Below are positions 2,447 through 28,401 of a stretch of DNA of 32,000 nucleotides, piece after piece. The notes beneath the pieces are model-generated. The model saw only the letters and a program-made list of their open reading frames with translations. It was not told the origin of the DNA and did not search any database. Numbering within the stretch: position 1 is the stretch's first letter; every line of letters starts with the position of its first letter. This DNA is from Candidatus Iainarchaeum sp. GTDB lineage: Archaea > Iainarchaeota > Iainarchaeia > Iainarchaeales > VGJJ01. The stretch covers positions 1 to 32,000 of the forward strand of contig JAUYHT010000006.1 of NCBI GenBank assembly GCA_030688545.1, written 5' to 3'. Position numbers and translations under genes: made by a program.

Positions 2447-2618
2447 TCATTATTTCATCCGACTCCTTATGGAGGAGGAAAGTCATACCTCTCTGGCATT
2501 CTAATGGGGGTTCAAATAAATGGGAAAATCCACGGGAAGGAATATAGGCTGATTTTTTCCTTTGAAAAAGGGGTTGAGGATATATCATTTAAAGCGTGGG
2601 AATCGTCATGGGGTCCTT

Positions 2619-5594
2619 ATGGAAGATGATAATCCGAGGGTGCATGTCGTGAAAAGCCGGGGTAATCCCTTTGACCGGCTGTTGGGAACCGCTCTTCCTC
2701 AATCGAAGCGGGTCCGGGAGGATGACGATGAATCCCCTCTCAAGGATGAGGATAAAGAAAACCCCCGAGAGGAGGACGACTTGGCAGATGAGGAGGATTC
2801 GGTGGAGGAAGATTTGGTTGACGAGAATGATCCCATGGAAGAGGATGAAAATACCCCCTTGAATGACGAACTTCCCAATGATGAAGATTCTGAGGAAAAC
2901 GGGGAGGATATTCCTGAAGAAAATGAAAATCCGGAAGAGGAAGGGGGAGATAAACCGGCGGAAGGAAATAGAAATGTTTCGCCCGGGGACCTGCGGGATC
3001 CCGAGTTATTAGATGAGGTGGGGGAGGAGATGGAAGATTTGCTCGTGGAACATGGCACCCATGAAGAAGGGGTGACAAGCGCGGATTCGCCAATGGAAAA
3101 AATAAGGTTGGTGGATCCGTCCCTGGTTGAGCGTCGCGAAAGGATCAAAGATCATCTGGTCCGAAAATCCCAGGGGCATTCCCTCCAGAAGGATGGAACG
3201 ACCATCAAATTGGATTTGCTTACGCATCCCAAAGAAAAAGTGGCCTTCATTGGGAGAAAGAAATCCCTGCTGCAGAAATTTGGTACGAAAGGAGGTTTGT
3301 TTATTGGCCGGGTCGCGGACGAAGAAGGATTACAAGATCATCAATTGCAATTGGATTCCCTCAACCCCCACGTGGTTTTCGTTTGCGGCACCCGCGGATC
3401 AGGGAAGTCCTACGTTCTTGGTGTCATCGCGGAGGAGTTAACGCTCAAAAACCCCGATGTGGGGATCATTGTGGTGGATCCGGTAGGGGTTTTCTGGTCC
3501 ATGAAATACCCCAACAAGGATGAGAAAGAGGTGCGCGCCCTCGCCAACTATGGGTTGATGCCCCAGGGGTTGGAAAGCCTCAAGGTTTTCATCCCGGAAG
3601 GGAGCAAGAATGATACGCCCCGCAACACGTATGACGCGTTGTATTCCATTCCCCCCTCCTTGCTCACGAGCGAGGATTGGTGTTTGACATTCGGGATGGA
3701 GCGGTTTTCCCCCACCGGATTAGTATTGGAGAAGGCCTTGAAAAAGGTGGAGAAGGGATTTCGAACCCTCACTGGAGAAAGCGTGAAAGGGAAAGGAAAG
3801 GGGTATGGATTGGAAGACCTCATCATCTGCCTCGAGAAGGACGCGGAAATTAATTCAAAAGAGCGGGGGTTCAAAACGGATAGTGTGCGCGCATTAGTGT
3901 CACGTTTCGAGGCGGCCAAGGGATGGGGGATTTTCTCAGAAAAAGGCACGCCTCTATCGGAGTTGTCGCGAGAAGGCCAATTGTCAGTTATCGATACCAG
4001 TTTCCTGGATGACACCGTAACAGCACTTGTCATTGGAATACTGGCCCGTCGTCTCCTGGCCGCGCGGAAGATCCAAACACGGAAAGAGGCGGCCAAGAGA
4101 TTCAAAGAGGATGATATGGAAAGACTCCTCGAGAGTGAAATTCCCCCGACGTGGTTATTCATTGATGAAGCCCATACGTTGATCCCTAGTGGCAACGTGT
4201 CTACTCCCGCGAGCAATGCCATTGTGGAATACGTGAAGCAGGGGCGAAGACCTGGGTGCAGTCTTGTGTTCGCTACGCAACAGCCTAGCGCGATTGACAC
4301 GCGTGTGCTATCCCAATTGGATGTGATTCTGGCCCATAAGCTCATCTTTGATGATGACATCAAAGCCATCATGAAACGCACCCCCACCATTATTCCACAG
4401 CGCTTCCGGCACGCTCATTTTCTCAAAACCCTGCCCGTAGGAACGGCATTGACCGGTGACCGACGGGAGGAAACCTCGCGTGCCTTTGTATTAAATGTGC
4501 GGCCGCGCATGTCGCAACACGAAGGAAGAGACGCTGAAACGAGCGAGCGGCACACCCAACTTGCTCCGGAGGAAGTGGAGAATCTCGCGGTGGAATTGCT
4601 CATGGGAACGATCGAAAAACAAGGGTCCATGGAAAAAAAGACGGTGGATGATGTCGTCCAGACGCTCAATCAAAAGTATAAGAGCGACGCTCAATTGTCG
4701 CACGTGCTGGATGGCATGGAGGAGAATGGAGTGGAAATTAATCCTAAAACCATGGTGCTGCGTTGGCCACCCTATTTCGAGGCATTGCAAACCGAGAAGG
4801 AAGAGGCCACTGACCAACGGTTGGTGGATGATTCCTTTCTCCCGGACGAAGGGGAATCAACCGCCCTCTTGGCGTTTCCCATCAAGATTTCCAATGAGGA
4901 AGTGGTGGCTTCCTTCCAGCGGGCGGCCAATAGGTCCATGTTGGGGTTAGGAAAACCGGTCGAGAAACTGGATAAAGTGGATTTGACCTACCGCCCCCTC
5001 TACAAGGTGGAGTATCGCCAGTTCACGGGGAAAACGAGTTACATCCCAAAGGAGTGTTTTGTAGATGCCGAGAGCGGGGAATTTTTGCACGTCGTGAAGA
5101 ATAGGATGGTTTCCTCCCGCGGCCTGAATGCGTTGCATGGGTTGAAAGAGGATCATTATCATTTGTTGCGTGAGGTGGCACGAAAGGGGGGGACGATCCC
5201 CCAATTGGCCAAACGGATGCGGTGCGAGGGGAAAGAGCTGGCAGCTCCTCTCCGCGTGCTCCAGAATAATGGGTTGATTCGCATGTCCAAGGATAAAGAA
5301 CCCGTTGTGTCCTTGTCGCCGCAAGTGGATATTCCTTTATCCGGAATGGAGAAGACCTTATCTTCCCTGACGCACGTGCCTTTGGTTCACGTGGATAAAG
5401 TGACGCGGACTCCATCGAATTTGAAACCTGAAGAGCTGCACACCCTCCTTGCCACCTGGTGGCCGGATGTGGTGGTGACGCAGGTTAAGGAAATCTTCCG
5501 CCCCACCTTTGACGGGCTGCTCATCAACCGCCAAACGGGCGAACACCGGGTGGTGCGCCTGGATGGGATGACGGGCGAGCGGCTCGAGGAATAG
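2619..5594 (+). CDS. HerA/FtsK-superfamily (DUF87-like) P-loop ATPase with acidic N-terminal tract and C-terminal wHTH-containing extension
   Basis: Walker A is VVFVCGTRGSGKSYVLG (about 3375-3425). Walker B is WLFIDEAHTLIP, followed by VFATQQPSAID. ATG 2619 has catttaaag 25-33 nt upstream; the ORF-track start is TTG 2562. Residues about 50-170 are D/E-rich low complexity. Near the C-terminus, LLREVARKGGTIPQLAKRMRCEGKELAAPLRVLQNNGLIRMS looks like a winged helix. Confidence 0.85.
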   Translation: MEDDNPRVHVVKSRGNPFDRLLGTALPQSKRVREDDDESPLKDEDKENPREEDDLADEEDSVEEDLVDENDPMEEDENTPLNDELPNDEDSEENGEDIPEENENPEEEGGDKPAEGNRNVSPGDLRDPELLDEVGEEMEDLLVEHGTHEEGVTSADSPMEKIRLVDPSLVERRERIKDHLVRKSQGHSLQKDGTTIKLDLLTHPKEKVAFIGRKKSLLQKFGTKGGLFIGRVADEEGLQDHQLQLDSLNPHVVFVCGTRGSGKSYVLGVIAEELTLKNPDVGIIVVDPVGVFWSMKYPNKDEKEVRALANYGLMPQGLESLKVFIPEGSKNDTPRNTYDALYSIPPSLLTSEDWCLTFGMERFSPTGLVLEKALKKVEKGFRTLTGESVKGKGKGYGLEDLIICLEKDAEINSKERGFKTDSVRALVSRFEAAKGWGIFSEKGTPLSELSREGQLSVIDTSFLDDTVTALVIGILARRLLAARKIQTRKEAAKRFKEDDMERLLESEIPPTWLFIDEAHTLIPSGNVSTPASNAIVEYVKQGRRPGCSLVFATQQPSAIDTRVLSQLDVILAHKLIFDDDIKAIMKRTPTIIPQRFRHAHFLKTLPVGTALTGDRREETSRAFVLNVRPRMSQHEGRDAETSERHTQLAPEEVENLAVELLMGTIEKQGSMEKKTVDDVVQTLNQKYKSDAQLSHVLDGMEENGVEINPKTMVLRWPPYFEALQTEKEEATDQRLVDDSFLPDEGESTALLAFPIKISNEEVVASFQRAANRSMLGLGKPVEKLDKVDLTYRPLYKVEYRQFTGKTSYIPKECFVDAESGEFLHVVKNRMVSSRGLNALHGLKEDHYHLLREVARKGGTIPQLAKRMRCEGKELAAPLRVLQNNGLIRMSKDKEPVVSLSPQVDIPLSGMEKTLSSLTHVPLVHVDKVTRTPSNLKPEELHTLLATWWPDVVVTQVKEIFRPTFDGLLINRQTGEHRVVRLDGMTGERLEE

Positions 5595-5595
5595 C

Positions 5596-5898
5596 ATGCT
5601 GCGCGGGGATTTCTTTGAAGCGCGGCTCTGCGACTCGCAACTCTCCTATGAGTTTGTCCCAAAACAGTCATTGAAGCTACCCCTCTTTACTTTAGGAAGG
5701 GAACTGAAGGATGCGGGACTATATGTGGAGATCAACACTCCCTTCATCGTGCAGGTCAAGCTACAAGACACCAAAATAAGCCTCTATCCCTCCGGCAAGG
5801 TATTCGTGAAACACGTATCCGAAAAGAAACAAGCCCAAACCCTATTCCGTCGCATGGTAAAGGCGCTTAATGCGTGTCCGGCGATGGCAAAGATTTAA
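5596..5898 (+). CDS. hypothetical 100-aa protein, possible single TBP-like fold domain
   Basis: The ATG lies 1 nt after the ATPase stop codon (TAG 5592-5594), indicating tight coupling. The C-terminal half DTKISLYPSGKVFVKHVSEKKQAQTLFRRMVKAL resembles one TBP repeat (xxLFSSGKxVxTGAKSxxxxxxAxxKxxxxL). Confidence 0.6.
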   Translation: MLRGDFFEARLCDSQLSYEFVPKQSLKLPLFTLGRELKDAGLYVEINTPFIVQVKLQDTKISLYPSGKVFVKHVSEKKQAQTLFRRMVKALNACPAMAKI

Positions 5899-5948
5899 AT
5901 TCGCCAAAATGCGCGTGAGGATACATAATCCCTTGGAGGAGCCTTCCC

Positions 5949-6275
5949 ATGACTGAAACCCCCACCCACGAAATTACCTTTTTGGATCCCCTCACCGCGG
6001 GGAAAGTGAATGCCGTCTTTGGATTAGTGGCGGGTTTGATTACGGGGATAGTGACATTGATCACCTCGGGGATACTATCTACTTATTTGCAAACCCAAAC
6101 GTGGGCCTCTCCGGAGGTCATTGCCACCGCGCAACAAGCGGGATTCATCGGGTTGCTGTTGTTCCTCGTATTAGGTATTATCACGGGCTTCCTCGCCGGG
6201 TTCGTGGGAGCATACATCTTCAACTTCACTGTCAAACTGGTAGGCGGTGTGAAGGTGGGCGTGAAGGACGAATAA
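5949..6275 (+). CDS. small membrane protein (2-3 predicted TM helices)
   Basis: GGAGGAG lies 8 nt upstream of the ATG. Hydrophobic stretches VNAVFGLVAGLITGIVTLITSGIL and FIGLLLFLVLGIITGFLAGFVGAYIF. Confidence 0.65.
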   Translation: MTETPTHEITFLDPLTAGKVNAVFGLVAGLITGIVTLITSGILSTYLQTQTWASPEVIATAQQAGFIGLLLFLVLGIITGFLAGFVGAYIFNFTVKLVGGVKVGVKDE

Positions 6276-6496: not shown

Positions 6497-6562
6497 TTTT
6501 TGATGAAACTTATTTCTAAAAAGTCCGTTTTTTGATGAAACTTTTTTCTAAAAAGTTTCATC
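6497..6562. repeat. two tandem copies of a 27-nt unit (period 33 nt); the second forms a 13-bp perfect hairpin
   Basis: ttttgatgaaacttAtttctaaaaagt (6497-6523) and ttttgatgaaacttTtttctaaaaagt (6530-6556). GATGAAACTTTTT (6534-6546) and AAAAAGTTTCATC (6550-6562) are exact reverse complements, and the hairpin overlaps the acylase stop codon (6558-6560). It lies between convergent genes, so it is probably a bidirectional terminator. Confidence 0.6.
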
Positions 6563-9452
6563 GGATGTAATTCAGCGTCACCGTGGATTCGGTGATATTC
6601 TGCAACCGGCTTTGGGTGAGGGGGGCGGAATAGAAGTTTTCGCTCGTCCAACGGGAGGCCAAATCATTAAAGTGCACATTTCCGGGGTTCTCAGAGTTGC
6701 CTAGAGGTAATAGCGTTCGCGCATCATCCGGTCGTGACAAATCAACGAATAGGGAATAGGATTGGGTCAATTGACTCCCAAGCGTCCCGATATCTGGATT
6801 CGTCCACCCGGTGTAAGTGCGATCTTTGGAGGGGTCCAAACTCCCGAATCCAAAGAAAACCGTATTGAAGTACTGCACCCGGTGTGAGGCACCTTGGGAC
6901 ACGTATTGGGAGGACCATTGCGCGGGATCATTCCCAAACTGGGAGGTGGTGAGGGACCACGCGGTGGATAATTTGTTTTCCAGCAAGGTTATTTCAAACG
7001 GGCGGAAATTCTGGTTGTTGGCCATTACTAACTTGGCATGCCGTATCCAGGCTCGCATCCCGGGTTCGCCCTCCCCATAAACATTAGTGATGCCCAACGA
7101 ATCGGACGCGCGCAGACGACTCCTGAAATTGGAAACCAGGGCAAAATAGGGCTCATTGATGGATGAGTGGGCGCCATCCTCATACCATTCTTCCAATAGG
7201 TTGAGGGCATTGATGGCCGTGGAACTGAATTTGTCTTCCCCCTGATTATCGCGAACATAGCGGGCTATTTCCACCAGATCGCGGCGGAAAATGCTCACGT
7301 CATCGAAATGAATATCTAATACTTCAGAGGGGGTGAATTTGGCTGGATGAGTCTCCAAGAGGAGCTCGCGCAAACGGTAGGATCGGGCCGTATCCCCCCC
7401 ACCGCCCCAGCCGGGATTATAAAAAATAGGATACCAGGCTCCCGCTGAAAGGTTGTTGGCGGAGAATAGGATACCGCTGCTCGGGTTGATCACATGGGGA
7501 CGCAACGTATGAGGGATAAATCCTTGCCAGAGATATTGGGAGTGGCTCCCATCCTGCGCCACCATCCCCGCAAGAGGAGACAACGAAGAGCGCGTGGGCA
7601 CGGCGGCCAAATGCCAGTAACCGATGTTCCCTTGGGAATCCCCGAAAATAATGTGTACCGCAGGACTCCGGTATTTGGCTAACGCATCCCTGAATTGATA
7701 CACGTCATCGGCGCGCATCATGGCAATGAGGGATTGAATCGTGTGAATATCTGAATCCACTAAAGGGACGGCCTGCACAATGTATTCCTCTCCCGGAAGC
7801 GCACTTACCATCGGAGTTATAATCGGGCCCAAAATGGTTTTCTTCACCGTGATGGATTGGGGGTTGCCATTCTTCACAAGAATGGTTTCATTTCGGGATT
7901 CGATAGTGTAGGTTTGGCCATTATACTCATACTGGTCGGTCCCCACCATCTTCAATTTGAACACGTCACTCAAATCCCCTCCCGCGGCGGTGATGCCCCA
8001 AGCCACCCGGGGATTGAACCCCACATAGATGCCCGGGGCCCCCGGAATGGCGGCCCCGCGCACGTCAAAGGTGGCCCCTTTCACGTGGATTTCATGCCAA
8101 GGGGAGGGGGAAGTAACATCCAGTTGGGGAGAGGAAACCAATATGGCGGCTCCCGTCGTCGAACGGCTGCCCCCCACTACCCAGGCGTGGCTCATTTTGG
8201 GTACTTCAATGAGATTCGTTGAATAGCCCCCGAAGGGAGAGTGTTGATTGGCATAGGTCTGCATGGCTTGGAGGGTGGCGGCGGGGACATCGCTTTGCTG
8301 AACCACGGCACCATCACTATCTACGTACGCCGTGGGTTCCATGTCCGCGGCCGCGGCATCAGCGGAACCCAGTTGGGCTACTTTTTGGTCAAACGTCCGC
8401 CTATTCGTCACTTCCGTGGCATCCACTCCGGCTCGAACTACTGAATCCCAAACTAAGAGAGAATCCACGGGGGTCCAGGGTTCGGGGACAGAATCGAAAA
8501 GATAGAGCAGGCTTGTTTTATGGGTCTCGAGGTAGTAATTTACTCCATCCGAATAGGCCTGGAGGAAATCTTTGGTCTCGGCATCCAGGTTAGGGTAGCG
8601 CGCGGCCGCGTAATCCGCGAACTGGAGGCGGCGCATCTTGATATCCAGGTTGATGGTGGCCCCCCCTCCCATACTCCCATTCAATTCAGACAACCGCCCT
8701 TTCATAATCATGCGGGTGCGATGCATCTGGTATATCCTGTCTTGAGCCGTGGCGTAGCCCATCCCATAGAAAGCGGAATAATCCGTGGTGGCAAACACAT
8801 GTGGCACTCCAAATTGATCACGGATGATTTTTAGGTCGATCCCGCAAGTTTGGGAAAGGAGAGGTTGGTCAACTTGGGTGCCGCAGGCATTCAAATCGGT
8901 GCAGGACCTGGTTTGCGTGCCATTCGTGCAGGGCCCCCAGTCCGTGCAGAACCAGTTCTCGGTACACTCACACACCCCACAATCAGATTCGCACGTGCTG
9001 CAGGTTTCGGTGGCATCACACACGCTATCCCCGCAGAAAGGTTGACAAGTCCCACAATCCTGGGGACACGTGAAACAATCCTCGCTTGATTGGCAGGCGT
9101 TGTCACCGCAGAAAGGGGGGATGGTCCCGCAGTCCGCGGGACAATTGGTGGAATTCTCTCCGGCTTCGCATATCTGGTTGCCGCACACCGGGGGGGAGAC
9201 ACACGATTGTTGGACAGGCGGTTTATCGTCTATCGTGCCACACGCATTCTGGTCGATACAAACTCGAGTCTGGATGCCATTGACACAAGCCGACCACCCG
9301 GAGCATTCCCAATCCTCCTCGCATTCAGGAGGCGGGGGAATAGGGGGTTGAGCGAAGAACAGGAACCAAATGCCTCCTGCTAATAGCAATAAGATAATGA
9401 ATCCCACCACGAAAGGAAGGATGGGGGTTGACTCGTCTTCCGCGGGGAACAT
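6558..9452 (-). CDS. membrane-anchored penicillin amidase / acyl-homoserine-lactone acylase family (Ntn hydrolase, S45-like) with N-terminal Cys-rich repeats
   Basis: N-terminal TM segment ILPFVVGFIILLLLAGGIWFLFF. Alpha-subunit signature RDQFGVPHVFATTDYSAFYGMGYATAQDRIYQM. Candidate beta-chain nucleophile in MSHAWVVGGSRSTTGAAILVSSPQL. A TATA-like cttttaaagaagg lies 22-32 nt upstream of the ATG on the minus strand. Confidence 0.9.
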   Translation of the reverse strand: MFPAEDESTPILPFVVGFIILLLLAGGIWFLFFAQPPIPPPPECEEDWECSGWSACVNGIQTRVCIDQNACGTIDDKPPVQQSCVSPPVCGNQICEAGENSTNCPADCGTIPPFCGDNACQSSEDCFTCPQDCGTCQPFCGDSVCDATETCSTCESDCGVCECTENWFCTDWGPCTNGTQTRSCTDLNACGTQVDQPLLSQTCGIDLKIIRDQFGVPHVFATTDYSAFYGMGYATAQDRIYQMHRTRMIMKGRLSELNGSMGGGATINLDIKMRRLQFADYAAARYPNLDAETKDFLQAYSDGVNYYLETHKTSLLYLFDSVPEPWTPVDSLLVWDSVVRAGVDATEVTNRRTFDQKVAQLGSADAAAADMEPTAYVDSDGAVVQQSDVPAATLQAMQTYANQHSPFGGYSTNLIEVPKMSHAWVVGGSRSTTGAAILVSSPQLDVTSPSPWHEIHVKGATFDVRGAAIPGAPGIYVGFNPRVAWGITAAGGDLSDVFKLKMVGTDQYEYNGQTYTIESRNETILVKNGNPQSITVKKTILGPIITPMVSALPGEEYIVQAVPLVDSDIHTIQSLIAMMRADDVYQFRDALAKYRSPAVHIIFGDSQGNIGYWHLAAVPTRSSLSPLAGMVAQDGSHSQYLWQGFIPHTLRPHVINPSSGILFSANNLSAGAWYPIFYNPGWGGGGDTARSYRLRELLLETHPAKFTPSEVLDIHFDDVSIFRRDLVEIARYVRDNQGEDKFSSTAINALNLLEEWYEDGAHSSINEPYFALVSNFRSRLRASDSLGITNVYGEGEPGMRAWIRHAKLVMANNQNFRPFEITLLENKLSTAWSLTTSQFGNDPAQWSSQYVSQGASHRVQYFNTVFFGFGSLDPSKDRTYTGWTNPDIGTLGSQLTQSYSLFVDLSRPDDARTLLPLGNSENPGNVHFNDLASRWTSENFYSAPLTQSRLQNITESTVTLNYIR

Positions 9453-9573: not shown

Positions 9574-10809
9574 ATGACAGGTCGCATGACCAAGCCGGTT
9601 CCCTATCGTCCTATGCGTGGAAAAACGCATATGCGTCCCCGGCGCTCCCTTTACCCAATAAAGCGGGGGGAAGTACAAACCCCTTTCCCCGCGGCCAAAA
9701 GGAGCCTAACCGCATTGGACATCATTTTCCTCCCGGATGGAAAAGTGAAAATCCCTTTTTACAAGGAAGGAAAAACCCCGGATGAATTGCTCCGGTTACG
9801 CCATGTCGATTTACCCAATCCCTACTCGGCCGTGCGGTTTTCCCGTCATCAAATGGATAGTGTGGCTCTGGAGTCAAAGCGGTTGGATGACATCTACCGC
9901 CTCACCGCGGGCACCCATTTTGGGATCGAGCAGCAATGGAAATCGTTTAATTCGGAACAGAAAGAGAGCGCCCGGAATCTGATTATGGCGATGGCCGGCG
10001 CCATCGGGAATCCCAACCAGTTGCGGAGCCATCATAAGAAGAATATCCAGAAACGCTTAGTGCGCGCCGCGGAGTTGCTTTCAATGGGAAATGATGGAGC
10101 AGCTTTGCTTACATTGAGCGGGGCAGGCAATGATATCCTCGCGCGTCGCAATCAATTGGTTAGGCAACGAATTTTCTTGCGCCGGCGGCATTCATTACTG
10201 AAGGATCGGGCCACCATCGAACAACAGCGTTTGGAAGATTATCTAACGGCCAATTTCAGGCGCCTGGACACACTGCGCAGTCCTCGCGTGGTCAAATCGG
10301 ATCTGGAAAGATTGGCAAACGAATTGGATAGAGAAACACGCAGCATGCTGAAAAAGCGCGAGCCCGAACTGAAGCAGGCGGGGGGAATCCTGTCAAAATC
10401 CCGCGAGGCCATTAAGGAAAACCATTTACGAGAGGCCTATGGCATGATCCGTGAGGCGAATCGCCTGGTAATTCGGGCGTTGGCTCGTCAATATCTTCTG
10501 ACCGGGACATTCATTCAGGTCGTGGTAAACTCCTCCCAATCCGAATTGAGGAAAATGGTTTTCCAGACGCAGTTAGCCATGTTAGCGGAGAATGCCATTT
10601 TCTGGTTCGATCGCACATCCCATCGGGATAATATGGTGTATCATCTTGAGACATTTGCCCGGGCCTCCGCGCGAGACCTGGGAAGGGAAACTGCCCAATT
10701 GGTAAGGGAAGCAGCCGCGGCGGCCAAGAATAATATGGGAACCCTCATGGAAGAGAAACTCATGCTCGCCGCCGGCATCATACGTAAAACACATAAACCG
10801 ATGGTGTAA
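9574..10809 (+). CDS. hypothetical protein (Arg-rich, predicted mostly helical)
   Basis: 411-aa ORF with no competing frame. cataaaatac lies 22-31 nt upstream of the ATG. I recognise no domain. Confidence 0.6.
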   Translation: MTGRMTKPVPYRPMRGKTHMRPRRSLYPIKRGEVQTPFPAAKRSLTALDIIFLPDGKVKIPFYKEGKTPDELLRLRHVDLPNPYSAVRFSRHQMDSVALESKRLDDIYRLTAGTHFGIEQQWKSFNSEQKESARNLIMAMAGAIGNPNQLRSHHKKNIQKRLVRAAELLSMGNDGAALLTLSGAGNDILARRNQLVRQRIFLRRRHSLLKDRATIEQQRLEDYLTANFRRLDTLRSPRVVKSDLERLANELDRETRSMLKKREPELKQAGGILSKSREAIKENHLREAYGMIREANRLVIRALARQYLLTGTFIQVVVNSSQSELRKMVFQTQLAMLAENAIFWFDRTSHRDNMVYHLETFARASARDLGRETAQLVREAAAAAKNNMGTLMEEKLMLAAGIIRKTHKPMV

Positions 10810-13239: not shown

Positions 13240-14289
13240 TCAGCTGGCCCGTTCCCCTTCCTCTTCATCGTCTTCCGGTTGGGGTTGGGGAGGGGGAGGT
13301 TCGGGTGGGGGAGCGGGTTCGTGTTCAGGGGGTTCCTCGGGGGGTTGGTCGGGTTGAATAGGGTGTGCGGGAGGAATGGGGGGTGGGGAAAAAGGCATGG
13401 GAAGCTGATTGGAGGGATCCTGGACCGGGAACATCGCATTTTGAGGCGGGGTTTGGGTTTGGGCGTTTAGGAGGCGCTCCATCAAATGGCTGGGGCCGCG
13501 GATGACCACGTTTTCACGGTGCAGGTCCAATGAAAATAGTCCCAGATAGGCCTTCATCCCAGGGAAATTCCCATCCTGGAGTTGGGCGAGGCGCGTTAAT
13601 ATCGTGGGAAAATGGGCGCTGGCGATAGTGAAGCGCGTGCCTTTGGAAATAGGATCTAACCCTTCCAGGATGGGGAGTACAGGAGCGGCTTCCGTGATGC
13701 CCAGAGCGGGTTCTACTTGTACTTCCGGAGTATTGGAGAGGGTGAGCAAATGCCCGGATAAGGGGCGCATCTCCTCGAGGGAAAGTTTGTGCGCCGAAGG
13801 AAAATTGAGTTCCTTGAGCGAGGCGACCTGATGGTCTAATGTTTTTTCGAGGTAATGAAGATGTTGGATGTGGGTGGAGAGGAACTGTTTCACCTTGTCG
13901 ATGTCCGCCACCGAAAAATTGACGGACGCCCGGGCATTATCCAGGAGGCGCTGGTCCTGCTTGCCCCGTTCGAGGAGGATGGAGAGATGCTGCACTAACG
14001 CATCGGGATTGTGGCCCAACCCCCGGGTCTGCATGAGCTGGTTGAGCTTGAGCACGAGCTTGTCGTGCATCTTCACCTTGAGGGAGGCCATCCCCTTGTC
14101 CGTGAGAAAGAGCTGATGGTCGCGCCGCTGGACCATGCCAAAAGAAACCGCATCCTTGAGCACCCGGGATAAAGCCGCGCGGGCTGAATTAAGGTTAGAA
14201 TAATTGGGGGCTATTTTAGAAAGGAGAGATTGATAGTCCATCCCCGGATTCTGCTGAATGATTAACAAGATACTCGTCTTAGAAGTCAT
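13240..14289 (-). CDS. hypothetical protein with N-terminal winged-helix-like domain and Pro-rich acidic tail
   Basis: The N-terminus ILLIIQQNPGMDYQSLLSKIAPNYSNLNSARAALSRVLKDAVSFGMVQRRDHQLFLTDKG looks like wHTH. The C-terminus is PPIPPAHPIQPDQPPEEPPEHEPAPPPEPPPPQPQPEDDEEEGE. Confidence 0.65.
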   Translation of the reverse strand: MTSKTSILLIIQQNPGMDYQSLLSKIAPNYSNLNSARAALSRVLKDAVSFGMVQRRDHQLFLTDKGMASLKVKMHDKLVLKLNQLMQTRGLGHNPDALVQHLSILLERGKQDQRLLDNARASVNFSVADIDKVKQFLSTHIQHLHYLEKTLDHQVASLKELNFPSAHKLSLEEMRPLSGHLLTLSNTPEVQVEPALGITEAAPVLPILEGLDPISKGTRFTIASAHFPTILTRLAQLQDGNFPGMKAYLGLFSLDLHRENVVIRGPSHLMERLLNAQTQTPPQNAMFPVQDPSNQLPMPFSPPPIPPAHPIQPDQPPEEPPEHEPAPPPEPPPPQPQPEDDEEEGERAS

Positions 14290-14462: not shown

Positions 14463-14747
14463 TCACGCCGTGGCCAGTTCGGCTTTCTTCATGCGCTTGG
14501 GGATGACGTAGTATTTCTTCATCTTGCATACCCCGCATTCGGCCAGGAAAACGGGTTTTTTGGTCTGCTTCTTGACGGGGATGACGAACTTGGCTTTTCC
14601 CCCATAGCCCTTTTTGTGCTTGCGGATATTCCGCCGTTGACCAATGGCCATAACCCGAGGAGAACCTGATTTGAAGGCCTTGAGCTTATGGTCAGAATGG
14701 GCATTGCATTTCTTGCAGTAGAGCTTCTTGGAGCGAGGAATCTTCAT
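14463..14747 (-). CDS. rpl44e: 50S ribosomal protein L44e (eL42)
   Basis: From M77 of the tracked ORF: MKIPRSKKLYCKKCNAHSDHKLKAFKSG...GQRRNIRKHKKGYGGKAKF...KKQTKKPVFLAECGVCKMKK. This has the CxxC...CxxC zinc ribbon and the GYGG and TKK motifs of L44e. The 76-aa upstream extension is Pro-rich junk overlapping the divergent gene. Confidence 0.9.
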   Translation of the reverse strand: MKIPRSKKLYCKKCNAHSDHKLKAFKSGSPRVMAIGQRRNIRKHKKGYGGKAKFVIPVKKQTKKPVFLAECGVCKMKKYYVIPKRMKKAELATA

Positions 14748-14925
14748 AAGTAAAACCGGTATCTCAAAAGTCGTCCAAGAAACCCTTAAAAAGAGAGGCC
14801 AAATGGGGCAGTGGGGGAATGGGGAGAAAGAAGGATTATTTGGGGGTGGGGAAATAGGAAAAATCGGAGGTTCGCTTATATACGACGCGGGGGTAGGAGA
14901 TAGGGGTAAGGGAGGATCCATTCGC

Positions 14926-15690
14926 ATGCTCGTGTCGCTGGGAGGGGGGGTAACATTTCTCCTTAGGAATCCCATCCTCTACATTGGAACGGTCTTCCTA
15001 TTGCTAATTCAAGGGGGAGTACTCCTGATCGCCGAGCCGTTTATCCAACCCCTCCTGGATTTGGGGACGCTAGACATCCTTTTCACCCACCCCCTGAATG
15101 GAATTATTGTCTTACTCGCTTTACTGATTAATGCGAGCATTGCAGTGTTCATCGTGGCCTGGGTGGCCCAGAGGATGCATCATCCTTCCTCCCAAGGATT
15201 AATAGGAAAGGCCGTGCAGGGTGCGCTCGTGATGGGATTGGCAGTAGGGGCGTGGGCGTTCATCCTATTAGGATTGGCATCGGGATCGTTGAGTGATAAT
15301 AGTCTCATTTCTTTGGTGAGCCTGGTGGCAGGAATAGTATGGATGGCCCTGGGTATTTTTGCCGTGGTTAAATGGATGTTTGTTTTTTCTTTTTTGGGAA
15401 CAGGTTCCTCATTGAAGGAAGCCCTGGCGCAATCGTGGCATTACACCCAGGGGAGGTGGATAACGACGCTTATTCTTGGATTGGTTTTAGTCGTGATCGG
15501 GGCCCTATTTGGAGGGATTACTGAAATTCTCGCACTCGCTTTTGAAAATGATATTTTGATCCAAATCGCCATCGCCGCGGGGGTGCAAGCCATCCCCACG
15601 GTATATGGCGCCGCCGTCCTCGCGCAGGCCATGCGCCTCTACACATGGCCCGCCGAGAAGCATTTTGCTAACCATGGGAAGAAGGGGTAG
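14926..15690 (+). CDS. polytopic membrane protein (about 6-7 TM)
   Basis: From ATG 14926 (M67 of the tracked ORF) the sequence is continuously hydrophobic-helical. The stop at 15688-15690 lies 3 nt before the ATG of the SMC/Rad50-like gene. Confidence 0.65.
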   Translation: MLVSLGGGVTFLLRNPILYIGTVFLLLIQGGVLLIAEPFIQPLLDLGTLDILFTHPLNGIIVLLALLINASIAVFIVAWVAQRMHHPSSQGLIGKAVQGALVMGLAVGAWAFILLGLASGSLSDNSLISLVSLVAGIVWMALGIFAVVKWMFVFSFLGTGSSLKEALAQSWHYTQGRWITTLILGLVLVVIGALFGGITEILALAFENDILIQIAIAAGVQAIPTVYGAAVLAQAMRLYTWPAEKHFANHGKKG

Positions 15691-15693
15691 GGT

Positions 15694-18012
15694 ATGCGTC
15701 TCGCCCGATTACGATTGAAGAATTTCAAATCATTCAAACAAGCCACCCTTCCCTTTGCCAATGGGTTCACGGCCATCGCGGGGGCCAATGGTAGCGGGAA
15801 GAGCAACATCATGGATGCCCTCCTCTTCGTTTTAGGAGAAACGAGCTTGAAATCCTTGCGCGCGTCCCGGTTAACAGATTTGGTGCTTACAGGTTCCCCG
15901 GATGGGTATGCGGTGGTAAACTTAACCTTGGAGGGGAAGGAAAGGAATTATGAGATTTCGCGCACCGTGGACAAGCATGGGAAATCCGTGTACCGGATGG
16001 ATGAGAAGCGCGTCACATTGGGAGAAGTCCAAAATCTCCTGGGAGAATTGGGATTGCGCGTGGATGGCCATAATCTCGTGGGGCAGGGAGATTTGTTGCG
16101 GGTCATTGACATGAATGATTATCAGCGCCGGGAAATGATTGATGAGATTGCGGGACTGCAGGAATTTGAGGAGAAGAAAAATGAGGCGTTGAAAGACCTG
16201 GATAAGGTGGAGCGTAAGATCAAGGATGTGGCTATTGTCCTCAATGAACGCATGGCGATCATCCAACAGCTCGCCAGAGAAAGGGAGGTGGCGCAACGAT
16301 TCACGGCCTTGGAGGACGAATTGAAAAAATCAAAAGCCACTATTCTTCATCTGGAAGAAAAGGAATTATCCGCGCGTCTCCAGGTCCTCGTGGAAAGTCA
16401 GGTCGAATTAATAGGGAAGAAAGAAACCGCACGGGAATCCCAGATGAAGAGTTTGTCGGAGGTTAAACAGTTAGAAGAGGCCTTTTCGGGTTTGGACAAA
16501 CAGGTCATTGGAATCAAGACGCAGGCATTTGCGGGAGATGAAAGGAGTGTGGAGAAGGTTGAGGCCGATATCCGGGTGAATGAGGAGCGAATTTCCCAAT
16601 GCAAGAAACGGTTGGAGGAGTTGGCCCACCAGCGCGTGGAATGGCAATTGGATCTCACGGAATGGGAGAGACTATCCCAGAAATATCCGGCTATTGATGA
16701 GGAAAAAAGGAAGATTGGAAATGAAATGGGTCAGCTTGAAAAGGGTATAGTTGAGCGTGGAGGGATGGCTTATGCCCACCTTCATAGTATTCAGGAATTG
16801 AAGAAGGCCAAATCCAATTGCCCGGTATGCGCCCGGGAGCTCAGCGCCAAAATCAAAACCAAATTGCTTGCGGAGAAGGAAACATTGCACCAGGAGGCGC
16901 AGACCCAAACGAATGCGTTGAAATTAGAGCGTGACCGTTTGAGGAAGAAATGGGAAGAGGTACAAGGTGAAGCGGTTCTCCTCACCCAATTGGCCAAGAG
17001 CGATGAAAAAGTGAAACAGCTCAACACGGATGAACAGCGGGTCGAGAAAGCCTTGAAAGGATGGGTTAGAATAACCCCCCAGTTAGAGAAGGAAAGGGAC
17101 GCCGCCGCCAAGAGACAAGCCTCTTTCGTGAAAGAGAATGAAGCCCTCCTGGGGAAGCGGGACAAAATAGGGGAGCGTCTCCATTCAGAGAGAGAGAAAG
17201 AGCGGGCCTTCCAGGAAAAAGTCATCCGATTGGATGCGCAGCTCTCCGAGATCAAGATTGAGCAATCCAAATTCGACACGAGGTTGCAGGACGTGAAAGA
17301 GGAGATGCGGAATTACCAAGGCATTCCTCCCCTGGAAGGGGGGGATGGCCCCACCCTCAAGAAACGCGTGCCGGTAATCGAACATGAAATGCGGCAATTG
17401 GGCACCGTCAATCTCAAATCGCTCGAGGACTTCGGCCACTATGAGAAAGAGGTCATGGAGATCAAGCGGCGTTCGGATACCTTGGATGAGGAAAGGATGG
17501 CAGTCCTTGACCTAATCCAAGGGATTGAAACTAATCGTACGGCGGCGTTCATGATGTGCTTTGATGCCATCAATGCCCATTTCAACCGGTTGTATGAGAG
17601 TTTCTTTGATGGAACCGCGCGATTAAGCCTGTCTAATCCTGAGAAACCATTAGAGTCCGGCCTCCTCATTGAAGCCATGCACGGGGAGGATAAACGGATG
17701 AAGGCCATCGATTCCATGTCGGGAGGAGAGAAGTCATTGACCTCCCTGGCGTTCATTTTTGCCATCCAATTGTATGAGCCCGCGCCCTTCTATTTCTTTG
17801 ATGAGGTGGATGCCGCGTTGGACATGACTAACTCAAAGAAAGTGGGGCATTTGATAAAAGAGATGTCCAAGGCCTCCCAATTCATCGCCATCACCCACAA
17901 TGATGCGGTGGTGAAAGTGGCCGATCAGATTTTGGGAGTCGCCAAGCGCAACACCGCCTCTACTGTGATCGGGTTGAAATCGGCGGCGGAAGCACGAACT
18001 TTGGAAGCGTGA
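15694..18012 (+). CDS. short SMC-family ATPase with Rad50-type CxxC zinc hook
   Basis: N-terminal FTAIAGANGSGKSNIMDALLFVLGETSLKSLRASRLTDLV and VGQGDLLRVIDMNDYQRREMIDEIAGL are SMC-like. The C-terminal signature MSGGEKSLTSLAFIFAIQLYEPAPFYFFDEVDAALD and QFIAITHN are also SMC-like. Heptad-rich arms. AKSNCPVCARELS sits at residues 372-384 of 772 (CPVC = 16819-16830), where a hinge domain would be expected. Confidence 0.85.
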   Translation: MRLARLRLKNFKSFKQATLPFANGFTAIAGANGSGKSNIMDALLFVLGETSLKSLRASRLTDLVLTGSPDGYAVVNLTLEGKERNYEISRTVDKHGKSVYRMDEKRVTLGEVQNLLGELGLRVDGHNLVGQGDLLRVIDMNDYQRREMIDEIAGLQEFEEKKNEALKDLDKVERKIKDVAIVLNERMAIIQQLAREREVAQRFTALEDELKKSKATILHLEEKELSARLQVLVESQVELIGKKETARESQMKSLSEVKQLEEAFSGLDKQVIGIKTQAFAGDERSVEKVEADIRVNEERISQCKKRLEELAHQRVEWQLDLTEWERLSQKYPAIDEEKRKIGNEMGQLEKGIVERGGMAYAHLHSIQELKKAKSNCPVCARELSAKIKTKLLAEKETLHQEAQTQTNALKLERDRLRKKWEEVQGEAVLLTQLAKSDEKVKQLNTDEQRVEKALKGWVRITPQLEKERDAAAKRQASFVKENEALLGKRDKIGERLHSEREKERAFQEKVIRLDAQLSEIKIEQSKFDTRLQDVKEEMRNYQGIPPLEGGDGPTLKKRVPVIEHEMRQLGTVNLKSLEDFGHYEKEVMEIKRRSDTLDEERMAVLDLIQGIETNRTAAFMMCFDAINAHFNRLYESFFDGTARLSLSNPEKPLESGLLIEAMHGEDKRMKAIDSMSGGEKSLTSLAFIFAIQLYEPAPFYFFDEVDAALDMTNSKKVGHLIKEMSKASQFIAITHNDAVVKVADQILGVAKRNTASTVIGLKSAAEARTLEA

Positions 18013-22731: not shown

Positions 22732-23625
22732 TTATTCTTCAGCGCCCGCCGTATGCGTGACAAACCCGATCCATCCCCGCGCGCGGAAGGGTTCGATGAC
22801 CTGATGGGCGAGTTTCCGGGTTTCGCACACGATGGCCACCGTGGGCCCCGCCCCGGCAAGCACACATTGTAGGACACCCGGCATTTTCCTCATTTCTTCA
22901 ATCAGGGAGAAAACCGGTGCATACTCGGGCAACTCCAGGGTCTCGAAGACGTTGCCCATGCCGTGAGCGATGTCGGCCGGATCCCCGGTTTCGAGCGCCG
23001 CGATCAATTCCAAGGCCGAGGGATGAAAACCCACTTTATCAACATCGAAGGCCCCGTAGATCCATTTCGTTTTGGCGGGGGGCACGGGCACGGGAGGCAC
23101 CAGGAAGGCGATTTCCAGGCGCGGGCAGGAAGGGAGGAGGGTGATGATTTCCCCTCTACCGGTGGCGCGGCAGGTTTTTCCATAAAAAAAGAAGGGGACA
23201 TCCGAGCCTATTTTTCCTCCCAAAACGGATAGCGCGTCCCGCGACAACCCCAATCCCCATGCGTCGTTCAAGCCCGTGAGCACGGCGGCCGCATTGCTGC
23301 TGCCTCCCCCTAATCCTCCGGTCGCGGGAATTTTTTTGGCGAGATGGATCCGCACCCCCTCCATTGGTTTTCCTTTTTTCTCACATTCAACTTGGAGGAG
23401 ACGCGCGGCTGTGTGGCAGACATTCCTCTCATCCGTGGGAACCGTGGGATCGGTGCACGTAATGGTAATGCGGGGATCATCGGGAATGGTTTCAAGTGTT
23501 ACGTCATCATGCCAATCCAGTTCCTGCATCACCAAATCAACCTCATGATAGCCATCATCCCGTTTCCGGAGGATATCCAATACGAGATTGAGCTTGGCGG
23601 GAGAACGAAGAATAAGAGGGGGCAT
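22732..23625 (-). CDS. ispE: 4-diphosphocytidyl-2-C-methyl-D-erythritol kinase
   Basis: N-terminal APAKLNL-type SPAKLNLVLDIL, GHMP kinase loop KKIPATGGLGGGSSNAAAVL, typical length of 297 aa. Confidence 0.9.
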   Translation of the reverse strand: MPPLILRSPAKLNLVLDILRKRDDGYHEVDLVMQELDWHDDVTLETIPDDPRITITCTDPTVPTDERNVCHTAARLLQVECEKKGKPMEGVRIHLAKKIPATGGLGGGSSNAAAVLTGLNDAWGLGLSRDALSVLGGKIGSDVPFFFYGKTCRATGRGEIITLLPSCPRLEIAFLVPPVPVPPAKTKWIYGAFDVDKVGFHPSALELIAALETGDPADIAHGMGNVFETLELPEYAPVFSLIEEMRKMPGVLQCVLAGAGPTVAIVCETRKLAHQVIEPFRARGWIGFVTHTAGAEE

Positions 23626-23638
23626 ACTACCGCCCGTA

Positions 23639-24652
23639 TCAGTGCACCACGTATTCGGGTCGGATGATTTCGCTTTCCGTGTGGTTGGTTTCTTTATCTA
23701 AATCGGCGATCCAGGAGACCACGTCCTCGATGTCCTCATCCGGGGTGCTCGCCCCTGCCCCGATGCCCACATGGGGAACATTCTCGAACCACTCGGGTTT
23801 CAATTCTTCCGCGGATTCAATCCATTGGGTTTTGGTTTGCTGGCCGCAGAGTTCGGCTTGGCGCTTGGTGTTCCCCGAATTCCTTCCTCCAATAATAATC
23901 ATGAGGGGCACGCGCATCGCTAAATCCACCGCCCCAGGCTGCATCTCGTGCATGGCGTTGCAGATGGTATTGTATACGCGCACTTCCCGGGCTTTGCCCA
24001 TCAGCTCTTGCGTGATGAGGTGCACATTGTCATTGCTCTGCGTGGTTTGGGACACAATCCCTATTTTTGTTAACACGGGATAATGCAATTTCTCCACTAT
24101 TTCTGAATCCGTTTTAGCTTTCATGAGTTCATCATTAGTATAATATTGGGTTTTCTTGGGAAACAGTTTTCGTGCCTCCTCCGGATTGGCCACTACAATA
24201 GCGTTGGGGGCATAGCTCTTAATCCCTTCTACTTCCGGGTGGCCATGTTCCCCCACGATGATGACCTGATAATGTTCATCGTTCAATACTTTGGCTGTTT
24301 TGTGGACCATGGTGACGAAGGGGCAGGTGGTGTCCACAACATTAAAACCTTTTTCTTTGGCCTTCTCTAAAGATTGCATCCGCACCCCATGCGCGCGCAT
24401 CAATACGGTGGATCCATCCGGGATCTCTTCCATGGTATTCAAGTGAGCAAATCGAGATATCTTGGAGGCCGCATAAGGATTATCTTCCACCAGCTTCCCC
24501 CCCGCGTCCATAATTTTTTGGACCACCCTTTGATTGTGGACGGGCATCCCATAGAGGTAGGCTTCTCCTTTTCCCAAGGTTTCCATGGACAGCTTGACAC
24601 TGCGTTTGACACCAAAACAGAACCCGGCGGCGCGGGCGATCTCGATTTTCAT
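23639..24652 (-). CDS. ispH: 4-hydroxy-3-methylbut-2-enyl diphosphate reductase
   Basis: From M38 (TAGGAGGAA 8 nt upstream). The three cluster cysteines lie in AAGFCFGV, DTTCPFV and YNTICNA. Stop is 13 nt before the ispE start. Confidence 0.9.
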   Translation of the reverse strand: MKIEIARAAGFCFGVKRSVKLSMETLGKGEAYLYGMPVHNQRVVQKIMDAGGKLVEDNPYAASKISRFAHLNTMEEIPDGSTVLMRAHGVRMQSLEKAKEKGFNVVDTTCPFVTMVHKTAKVLNDEHYQVIIVGEHGHPEVEGIKSYAPNAIVVANPEEARKLFPKKTQYYTNDELMKAKTDSEIVEKLHYPVLTKIGIVSQTTQSNDNVHLITQELMGKAREVRVYNTICNAMHEMQPGAVDLAMRVPLMIIIGGRNSGNTKRQAELCGQQTKTQWIESAEELKPEWFENVPHVGIGAGASTPDEDIEDVVSWIADLDKETNHTESEIIRPEYVVH

Positions 24653-24702
24653 GGGGATGGTTCCTCCTAAGGAATAGTGATACCTATTCCAATGGGAATA
24701 GG
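24653..24702 (-). promoter_or_regulatory. ispH 5' leader with mutually exclusive hairpins next to the SD
   Basis: mRNA sense: CCTATTCC-CATT-GGAATAGG-TATCA-CTATTCC-TTAGGAGGAA-CCATCCCC-ATG. The middle segment can pair with either flank. A TATA-like GTTTTTTATT lies at 24744-24735. Confidence 0.35.
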
Positions 24703-24881
24703 GCAGCCTGTTGAACCAGTAGGTGAAAAGACCCAATAAAAAACAATCGGAAAAAATGGACAATCGTCAAAATAAAGAACGGCGAATAGCGTAATCCTTA
24801 ATCGGTAGGTAATTGGGTGGACCAAATGAATAAACGGGGTCTTTCAACAGATTTATATGATGCGTGGAGATTCAAGATCGT

Positions 24882-25496
24882 ATGGAAAAAAAATGGATTA
24901 TTCCAGGAATACTCATACTAGTTGGAATATTAGCCGTGGCATGGGCGTTGTTCCCCATGGAACAAGCCAACCCTGATCCTAATCATACGCATGCCGATTT
25001 TGCAGTATATATACATAATGAGCGCGTGGACTTTTCCCAACCCCAATACATGTCCACTGAAACCCAGAAGCGCTCCCCTTACACCCATTTGCATGATGGG
25101 GATGGGGAGGTCATGCATATCCACGCCCTCGGGGTAACACTCGGATTGTTCTTCCATACCCTTGACATGCGCCTCACCACGGATTGTTTTACCTTGGATA
25201 CGGGAGCTTCTTACTGCACGGACGAAACCAATTCCCTGCGTGTTTACGTGAACGGCCAACCCATAGCAGATGGTATGGCTTACCAGCCCCAGGATTTGGA
25301 CCAAATACTCATTACATTCGGCGATGAATCCCCGGATGAAATACAAGTCCAATTGGATTCCCTCACCGACAAAGCCTGCATCCCCTCCAAGGTATGCCCC
25401 TGGCGCGGCACCCCTGAAGATGAATCCTCCTGTTCCTCGGACGAAGGATGTCTTATCGTTCCTCCGTCCGCTTATCCTGATTATTCCACGGAATAA
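24882..25496 (+). CDS. membrane-anchored His-rich extracytoplasmic protein (unknown function)
   Basis: tttatata lies 23-30 nt upstream of ATG 24882. TM segment KKWIIPGILILVGILAVAWALF. HTHADFAVYIHNERVDF and YTHLHDGDGEVMHIHA histidine clusters. Confidence 0.6.
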   Translation: MEKKWIIPGILILVGILAVAWALFPMEQANPDPNHTHADFAVYIHNERVDFSQPQYMSTETQKRSPYTHLHDGDGEVMHIHALGVTLGLFFHTLDMRLTTDCFTLDTGASYCTDETNSLRVYVNGQPIADGMAYQPQDLDQILITFGDESPDEIQVQLDSLTDKACIPSKVCPWRGTPEDESSCSSDEGCLIVPPSAYPDYSTE

Positions 25497-25648
25497 AAAA
25501 TAGTTTTGGTATGCGGTTTAATATATAGCCCAAATACTACACTCCCTTACGGCCGCGCGGGATAAAAATCGTGATACAACGAAGATTGGAATACGTGTCC
25601 TAAAAATTTAAGATAGGCCTTTATAGGGATGCAATCCCTCCTTTGCCG

Positions 25649-26839: not shown

Positions 26840-26843
26840 GATC

Positions 26844-28397: not shown

Positions 28398-28401
28398 ACG
28401 C

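Follow-up and report, generated by a model that had tools for sequence, protein, structure and literature searches.

A NurA-less HerA-clade ATPase of the Iainarchaeota and its TBP-like neighbour: a candidate chromosome-maintenance translocase

HerA-type ATPase rings are known from archaeal DNA repair, where they partner the NurA nuclease, and from bacterial anti-phage systems, in which they serve as scaffolds, and the locus described here raises the question of what such an ATPase does where NurA is not encoded beside it. The locus lies in the first 32,000 nucleotides (nt) of contig JAUYHT010000006.1 of Candidatus Iainarchaeum sp. (assembly GCA_030688545.1; this whole stretch is called the window), where a gene for an ATPase of 991 amino acids (aa) is followed by genes for a 100-aa and a 108-aa protein. 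An initial annotation, made from the sequence alone, had proposed that this trio, possibly together with a pilin-like gene upstream, is an undescribed module for DNA transfer or defence. As described below, the ATPase is a new architectural variant of the HerA-clade ATPases that is found phylum-wide, and it is probably the product of a housekeeping gene. This amounts to a third HerA layout, in which a strongly conserved chromosomal ATPase has its own putative nucleic-acid-binding module and a single-TBP-domain partner; it spans a whole DPANN phylum, and relatives of the ATPase occur in several other uncultivated archaeal lineages.

Architecture of the ATPase

An open reading frame (ORF) on the forward strand spans 2562-5594, and translation from the ATG at 2619, a start that agrees with the N-termini of homologues (M-x-E-E...RV), gives the protein of 991 aa, about twice the usual length of a HerA. 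The protein has no transmembrane segment, and its features are as follows (positions in the window; + is the forward strand):

2619..5594 (+): gene for the HerA-clade (DUF87) P-loop ATPase, 991 aa, identified from the ORF, Pfam and homologues
2619..3203 (+): disordered, net-acidic N-terminal tail, aa 1-195
2664..2687 (+): tail short motif 1, NPFDRLLG, aa 16-23, consensus D-phi-F-[DE]-[DE]-phi-phi
3054..3074 (+): tail short motif 2, GTHEEGV, aa 146-152, consensus G-x-x-E-E-G-[IV]
3204..4538 (+): ATPase core, aa 196-640, in which a RecA-like HerA fold that includes a helical insert follows a short N-terminal beta region
3387..3410 (+): Walker A GTRGSGKS, aa 257-264, intein site in homologues (GSGK|C...HN|SY)
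4158..4175 (+): Walker B FIDEAH, aa 514-519, with D516, E517, A518 and H519 invariant
4272..4289 (+): ATQQPS motif, aa 552-557, a sensor region typical of DUF87/HerA_C, invariant in the homologue alignment
4500..4529 (+): RPRMSQHEGR motif closing the core, invariant in two alignments of homologues
4563..4766 (+): winged-helix domain 1 (wH1), aa 649-716, neutral to acidic, topology H-b-H-H-b-b, confidence score (pLDDT, see below) 84-94
4767..4859 (+): acidic, variable, disordered linker, aa 717-747, pLDDT below 50, median net charge -7
4860..5123 (+): PepSY-like alpha+beta domain 1 (PepSY1), aa 748-835, net basic, ending VDAESGEFLH
5142..5321 (+): winged-helix domain 2 (wH2), aa 842-901, TrmB/MarR/ArsR-like, net basic
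5424..5591 (+): PepSY-like alpha+beta domain 2, aa 936-991, ending LDGMTGE

The core belongs to the HerA clade (DUF87) of the FtsK-HerA superfamily. Pfam DUF87 ('Helicase HerA, central domain') matches aa 228-478 with 58.4 bits against a cut-off of 23.2 (1.5e-15), HerA_C matches aa 508-624 with 27 bits against a cut-off of 22 (2.3e-6), and the significant sequence and profile matches of the core in the PDB are HerA proteins throughout; the ATQQPS motif, for example, aligns to the HerA structure 8xau. The core-closing motif extends beyond the phylum, reading RPRLSHHAG in a Thermoplasmatota relative (P0388, see below). Core identity across the phylum is 65-77%, and because the alignment is consequently shallow, the AlphaFold model of the core is of low confidence (predicted local distance difference test, pLDDT, 59.5) and served for a coarse fold match only. 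In Foldseek, this model is closest to the HerA of the Thermococcus kodakarensis HerA-NurA complex (9x1m, 6.9e-13) and to Sulfolobus solfataricus HerA (4d2i, 8.8e-13), and its top 40 matches are HerA chains only, at template-modelling scores of about 0.5 for a query of that pLDDT; archaeal housekeeping HerA proteins rank first, followed by anti-phage HerAs, with VirB4 far lower. The canonical HerA equivalogs of NCBIfam remain below their cut-offs (NF040937, 36.4 bits against 800; NF040819, 32.6 bits against 970), and the curated equivalogs for HerA, anti-phage HerA, CedB, CedD and VirB4 together give 12-36 bits against cut-offs of 590-970. Neither FtsK_SpoIIIE nor FtsK_gamma of Pfam matches the ATPase, and PHROGs returns generic ATPase-core similarity only, including a weak FtsK-like match (4.2e-5).

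The N-terminal tail contains a D/E-rich core at aa 33-151 (nt 2715-3071) with 47% D/E and 6% K/R. Its length and sequence vary among homologues, while its charge does not change sign, all 23 tails compared being net acidic (net charges from -8 to -82). The two short motifs listed above are the conserved points, F18 in the first and E144, E149 and E150 in the region of the second being near-invariant in the homologue alignment.

The C-terminal extension of about 350 aa was modelled by AlphaFold with 16 homologues, and the model is confident (pLDDT 85), giving the order winged helix, linker, PepSY-like, winged helix, PepSY-like. A profile of wH2 matches MecI (3.6e-4) and AdcR (1.5e-3) in the PDB, and its fold matches in Foldseek are the ArsR/MarR-type regulators HlyU and CzrA, at a root-mean-square deviation of about 2 Å; Pfam TrmB is matched by 10 of the 16 homologues. 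Foldseek on the whole C-terminal model matched wH2 only, and the PepSY assignment comes from Pfam scans of the homologues, 9 of 16 of which match PepSY (best 2.9e-8); both alpha+beta domains finish in a PepSY-like D-x-x-(S/T)-G-E signature. In every homologue PepSY1 and wH2 carry a net positive charge, although the protein is acidic elsewhere. No nuclease or other catalytic family was detected in the extension, hence it is not a fused NurA, a possibility that the initial annotation had itself raised against its proposal, and is instead a winged-helix/PepSY-like module.

The initial annotation thus described the protein well: its length, the acidic tract of about 120 residues, the Walker A, Walker B and ATQQPS motifs and the extension with a winged helix-turn-helix (wHTH) were all recovered, the last by profile, by the Pfam matches of homologues and by Foldseek. 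Its view of the ATPase as an atypical HerA-clade enzyme is likewise borne out, with DUF87 and HerA_C above cut-off and archaeal HerA as the best fold matches.

Distribution, partner gene and neighbourhood

A search of 5.8 billion proteins returned more than 421 homologues of the ATPase at 44-61% identity, nearly all of them labelled Diapherotrites, Iainarchaeum or 'archaeon'. When one genome per species was scanned, relatives were found in 274 species genomes, almost all Iainarchaeota and with the complete chromosomes CP064981 and CP010424 among them; among 2.9 million viral contigs there was one weak relative. An intein placed exactly in Walker A accounts for the length of 1,190-1,550 aa in about 12% of the listed homologues (P0011, P0073, P0100, P0103 and about ten more; loci L013, L069 and L080). 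Most of these inteins contain a LAGLIDADG homing endonuclease and others lack it, that of P0103 being a mini-intein, and a Micrarchaeota relative (P0286) has an intein at the same site.

A profile of the C-terminal module, run against 1.84 billion representative proteins, recovered 47 proteins at E<=1e-30, namely the Iainarchaeota family and fragments of it, and a second tier of about 150 proteins between 1e-30 and 1e-10. The second-tier proteins that were sampled are DUF87 ATPases of 510-1,470 aa with the module at the C-terminus, some with a P-loop intein and some with a DUF835 insert, an inactivated-KaiC domain (PMC5847659), and they come from Thermoplasmatota, Theionarchaea, Hadarchaeales, Micrarchaeota and 'Euryarchaeota' metagenome-assembled genomes (MAGs). 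The Thermoplasmatota protein P0388 (1185 aa) aligns with the complete core (aa 201-639) at 39% identity (E 4e-104). The neighbourhoods of these relatives outside the phylum are of housekeeping type and show no common partner gene, no NurA and no TBP-like gene. Within a wider archaeal HerA-clade (DUF87) family that is uncharacterised, the ATPase represents the branch of the Iainarchaeota (Diapherotrites, DPANN), and in this phylum its gene has been inherited vertically, in housekeeping synteny. The earlier suspicion that the family had not been described agrees with the literature searched, in which no account of it was found.

Some observations were made along the way. ATPase-bearing contigs also occur in MAGs labelled Thaumarchaeota, Falkowbacteria, Chloroflexi, Peregrinibacteria and Micrarchaeota (L016, L030, L043, L057 and L054), which are probably binning errors in public records. 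A few kb from the Thermoplasmatota relative of locus L085 lies a gene for SepF (15118-15522), a PRC-barrel protein and Cdc48 are encoded at a similar distance from a Theionarchaea relative (L091, 9715-12251), and the four loci L087-L089 and L091 each encode an M50 site-2 protease further downstream; the proximity of these cell-division and cell-cycle genes and of the protease may be due to chance.

For the neighbourhood of the ATPase, ORFs were called and clustered in 83 loci with 5-kb flanks, and flanks of 10 kb were used for some genomes of a distant clade. The features of the window that enter this comparison are:

5596..5898 (+): predicted single-TBP-domain protein, 100 aa, with its ATG 1 nt past the ATPase stop TAG (5592-5594)
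5935..5940 (+): GGAGGA Shine-Dalgarno-like site, 8 nt before the ATG at 5949
5949..6275 (+): 108-aa protein with two hydrophobic segments, DUF3566-like (Pfam transmembrane family DUF3566, 3.5e-5)
15694..18012 (+): short SMC, 772 aa, a loosely syntenic neighbour whose membership in a module is not shown

The 100-aa ORF itself matches Pfam TBP below the cut-off (E 0.004, 17.3 bits against 22.9), and 12 of 18 aligned members of its family match this model, with a best value of 1.1e-6. The family, collected by an alignment search (a single-sequence search gave 2 matches), comprises more than 187 homologues of 85-155 aa, all but two of which are no longer than 107 aa and none of which is fused to another domain, and it shares the motif S-L-Y-P-S-G-K-I-L-V-K, which we take to resemble the TBP signature. 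Judged by its sequence, the 100-aa protein would be a complete, stand-alone single-TBP-domain protein.

The gene for this protein begins at most 100 nt past the ATPase stop in 13 loci from 12 genomes (L018 included), lies 1.5-4.5 kb downstream on the same strand in 8 further loci, and is never found upstream. When the flanks were widened to 10 kb, three further genomes from the distant clade proved to have it: it adjoins the ATPase gene in L089 and follows directly after a convergent hexapeptide transferase/GlmM/GlmS block in L087 and L088. The same inserted-block arrangement is seen in the complete AR10 genome (L051), and in L073 and L076 the block is followed by one or two further small ORFs after GlmS and then by the 100-aa gene. 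Linkage in one subclade only, as suggested by the 5-kb count, was thus overturned by the wider flanks. Since the TBP-like gene is the next co-directional gene, either adjacent or past an inserted block, in both deep clades, the two genes are best read as an ancestral two-gene unit that was split by insertions.

The same does not hold for the 108-aa membrane protein, homologues of which occur in 13 of 83 loci and in none of L087-L089; its gene comes after the pair in no group but the window's subclade, in 10 genomes besides the window and, at some distance, in L011 and L080. None of the surveyed loci has a counterpart of the upstream ORFs for the Cas4-like, the pilin-like and a 117-aa protein. 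As for the claims made at the outset about the trio, the 1-nt gap between the ATPase and the 100-aa ORF, the TBP-like nature of the latter and the Shine-Dalgarno-led membrane protein were all found as described. Co-conservation of the three genes is upheld for the ATPase and its TBP-like partner and fails for the membrane protein, and the pilin-like gene drops out of the module.

Neighbours of the ATPase that recur in Iainarchaeota are GlmS/GlmM/hexapeptide transferase, HAD-CofD, L44e and SMC. A downstream block, composed of a convergent 267-349-aa wHTH-like protein, L44e, a polytopic membrane protein and an SMC_N protein, is present in both deep clades (L034, L038, L039, L065, L071, L075, L082, L089 and the window), and SMC lies 2.2-5 kb downstream of the ATPase in the eight loci other than the window. 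The SMC_N protein had also been considered as Rad50 and is SMC, with the NCBIfam model SMC_prok_A (TIGR02169) at 1.2e-144 versus 1.7e-27 for Rad50. As noted from the beginning, known HerA partners are missing: NurA, Sir2 and Mre11 families were not found among the 35 window ORFs scanned, and the Pfam-annotated neighbour lists of L001-L003, L084-L089, L091 and L092 contain no NurA, Mre11 or Rad50.

Further observations concern the proteins of this block. The SMC of the window has 772 aa as compared with about 1,165 aa in the SMC_prok_A model, and its match to this model falls into two stretches, pointing to a coiled coil of greatly reduced length. Its gene begins 4 nt after the gene for the polytopic membrane protein (14728-15690), and the same order of membrane protein and SMC is seen in 8 other Iainarchaeota loci, where SMC has 745-989 aa. 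The wHTH-like protein of the window (349 aa, 13240-14289, reverse strand) has a wHTH-like N-terminal region and a very proline-rich, acidic C-terminal tail and matches no Pfam or NCBIfam family; in 22 of 83 loci a member of its family (267-349 aa) is encoded convergently with the ATPase, often no more than 100 nt away, and adjoins L44e, and a functional link with the ATPase or with SMC is possible.

Proposed role and alternatives

The evidence tips, if only slightly, towards an uncharacterised, NurA-independent HerA-type DNA translocase that serves chromosome maintenance together with a TBP-like partner, rather than defence or DNA transfer. By analogy to HerA and FtsK, the ATPase would form a ring that pumps double-stranded DNA. 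It would work without NurA, with the basic PepSY1-wH2 pair as a nucleic-acid-binding module of its own; the absence of NurA and the presence of this module suggest that recognition or loading of the substrate is built into the protein. The TBP-like protein may be a DNA-binding, DNA-bending or loading adaptor for the ATPase, and the acidic tail could either mask the basic module as an autoinhibitory DNA mimic or recruit partners through its two short motifs. The cellular role would be in chromosome segregation, clearance or repair, and such a housekeeping function would be in keeping with vertical inheritance, with inteins in the P-loop and with the loosely syntenic SMC gene. If this is true, the ATPase is a concrete candidate for DNA movement or clearance in archaea that lack FtsK.

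Several points weigh against the proposed translocase. DNA as the substrate is deduced only from family membership and from the winged-helix and TBP folds, and both folds also mediate protein contacts. PepSY domains are usually extracytoplasmic, and the proposed reading does not account for them. In the structural comparison, the core model reaches a pLDDT of only 59.5, and a canonical HAS-barrel is doubtful because only about 60 residues (aa 196-256), modelled with low confidence as 3-4 short strands, separate the tail from the P-loop. With respect to the partner, 53 of the 83 loci show no TBP-like gene within 5 kb, although many of these end inside or just after the GlmS block or after a further wHTH gene, so that linkage is unassessed there, and the relatives outside the phylum have no such gene beside them. 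Synteny with SMC is broken by genes on the opposite strand and may be mere conserved gene order. Finally, no biochemical or genetic datum for any member of the family was found in the literature searched.

Among the alternatives, the one that survives best is that the ATPase replaces canonical HerA in the end resection of double-strand breaks, with a nuclease encoded elsewhere, and this we consider unlikely. It draws on the closest structures, which are those of HerA from HerA-NurA complexes, on RecJ/GAN and SMC being encoded in the window, and on the reduced nature of DPANN genomes. Against these stand the 33-36 bits scored with HerA equivalogs whose cut-offs are 800-970, and the lack of NurA, Mre11 and Rad50 in the window and in the annotated neighbour lists of 14 loci, the neighbour first taken for Rad50 being SMC.

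Only a little less probable is an ATP-driven regulatory or protein-remodelling device, in which the winged helices would be the output of a transcription factor or a site for protein docking, and the ring would sense or remodel a partner. Known examples of PepSY domains serve in protein interaction, wH1 is acidic, wH2 is TrmB/MarR-like and thus of a typical regulator fold, and the Thermoplasmatota relatives insert DUF835, an inactivated-KaiC signalling domain (PMC5847659). What speaks for DNA instead is that the conserved partner appears, from its sequence, to have the DNA-binding TBP fold, and that very strong conservation of the core together with P-loop inteins is more typical of information-processing enzymes; moreover, all characterised HerA-clade rings act on nucleic acids.

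The translocase proposed above also has a bolder form, for which the odds are rather poor, namely that the family is the archaeal counterpart of FtsK that has long been sought. Here the winged-helix/PepSY module and the TBP-like protein would read DNA, the ATPase would clear or segregate chromosomes during division together with SMC, and perhaps with XerA/dif, in archaea without FtsK, and the tail would be an autoinhibitory DNA mimic that is released at the division site.

Import or export of DNA, as in Ced/Ted-like or conjugative systems, would have the ATPase dock onto the 108-aa protein, perhaps with the help of the pilin-like protein, and has little to recommend it. CedB and VirB4 are ATPases of the HerA/FtsK superfamily that work with small membrane proteins, and the window offers a two-transmembrane protein that follows the pair in 10 other genomes of its subclade, as well as a class III signal-peptide protein upstream. 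The ATPase nevertheless scores 11.7 bits with the NCBIfam model of CedB (cut-off 700), 15.7 bits with CedD (cut-off 600) and 17.9 bits with VirB4, and has itself no transmembrane segment; most of the phylum, L087-L089 included, lacks the membrane protein; and the pilin-like gene, which recurs in no other locus, is separated from the ATPase gene by a tRNA-Ala gene (2374-2448). A CedB assignment, which the initial annotation had put up for checking, and the DNA-transfer module that it suggested are not supported.

Least probable is a new anti-phage system, in which a HerA-type hexamer would scaffold or activate the TBP-like and membrane proteins as novel effectors, in the manner of Sir2-HerA, DUF4297-HerA, TdpAB or MADS, because the matches that suggest it (PADLOC mad8 at 8.8e-21, then several defence HerA models, and Foldseek matches to Sir2-HerA, TdpA and DUF4297-HerA structures) are generic and at the level of the ATPase core, with archaeal housekeeping HerA at least as good, because none of the three proteins has an effector domain (nuclease, Sir2, TIR or protease), because the Cas4-like nuclease 2 kb upstream, the only PADLOC match among the neighbours, recurs beside the ATPase in no other locus, as is true of the pilin-like gene, and because the gene is neither patchy nor in variable islands, being found in 274 species genomes with conserved housekeeping neighbours, P-loop inteins and one weak viral relative. 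This also calls for caution in a wider sense, as matches to HerA models of defence libraries, such as PADLOC mad8, are no evidence of defence when the gene is phylum-wide and syntenic.

Other genes of the window and comparison with known systems

The start of the window encodes a Cas4-like PD-(D/E)XK nuclease (3-656), behind it a small zinc-ribbon protein (660-860), and the class III signal-peptide (archaeal pilin-like) protein (1314-1859), and none of these ORFs is conserved beside the ATPase in the surveyed loci. Convergent with the trio is a gene for a penicillin amidase (Ntn hydrolase, 1.8e-136; 6558-9452, reverse strand) that has an N-terminal extension of about 200 aa of cysteine-rich repeats after a signal or transmembrane segment; it is absent from all related loci. 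A 411-aa protein (9574-10809, forward strand) without a family match is encoded near the trio in 7 loci of the window's subclade. Further downstream (22732-28893) lies a bacterial-type isoprenoid cluster of the methylerythritol phosphate/deoxyxylulose phosphate (MEP/DOXP) route:

22732-23625 (-): IspE-like GHMP kinase
23639-24763 (-): IspH/LytB
25643-26839 (+): DXR
27119-27853 (+): IspD
28402-28893 (+): IspF/YgbB

As archaea normally use the mevalonate route, this cluster looks horizontally acquired.

Among known systems, archaeal HerA (4D2I, 9X1M), to which the ATPase is 16-18% identical, shares with it the DUF87 match and the arrangement of Walker A, Walker B and sensor including the helical insert, and it gives the top matches in Foldseek. 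Unlike HerA with its full HAS-barrel, the ATPase has about 60 aa before the P-loop; it lacks a NurA, Mre11 or Rad50 partner, and it is extended by an acidic tail (about 195 aa) and a C-terminal module (about 350 aa). Its nearest relatives outside the phylum are the Thermoplasmatota DUF87-DUF835 proteins and shorter DUF87 proteins of Theionarchaea, Hadarchaeales, Micrarchaeota and 'Euryarchaeota', uncharacterised proteins that are annotated 'DUF87 domain-containing protein' or 'ATP-binding protein'. They share the PepSY-wH-PepSY module at the C-terminus, and P0388 keeps the FWS, EDWC, EYxKQGRRPG and RPRxSxHxG signatures of the window ATPase, whereas the acidic N-terminal tail and an adjacent TBP-like gene are missing and the Thermoplasmatota copies insert DUF835.

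Anti-phage systems such as Sir2-HerA/Nezha, DUF4297-HerA, TdpAB and MADS are similar in the core (mad8 as above, HerA models at 1e-18 to 1e-8, Foldseek matches of their structures at 1e-11 to 1e-7). These systems are patchy in distribution, whereas the window ATPase is universal in its phylum and has neither an effector partner nor a defence island. Like the Ced system of Crenarchaeota with CedB, the window has a HerA/FtsK-superfamily ATPase beside a small membrane protein, although in the window's subclade only; this protein is DUF3566-like and not conserved, and, unlike in Ced, the ATPase lacks a transmembrane segment.

With FtsK, SpoIIIE and Streptomyces TraB, the ATPase has in common the superfamily and, in its proposed role, the order of a ring translocase followed by a winged-helix DNA reader, a functional analogy only. 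The precedent of FtsK-gamma and KOPS illustrates how a winged-helix domain could load or orient the motor, and the synteny with SMC fits an FtsK-like role at the chromosome. Unlike FtsK, the window ATPase has no N-terminal membrane domain, its core is of the HerA clade, and its winged helices are of the TrmB/MarR type.

The 100-aa protein, in turn, is likened by description to the monopartite TBP-domain proteins of Thermococcales, which are stand-alone proteins of about 82-96 aa, diverged from the TBP of the organism and of unknown function (PMC3597702, Brindefalk et al., 2013), and it resembles them in size and in Pfam family. None of the Thermococcales proteins has been described as having a conserved place behind a HerA-like ATPase, and if the pair indeed acts in chromosome maintenance, it would provide the first functional context for such orphan monopartite TBP-domain proteins.

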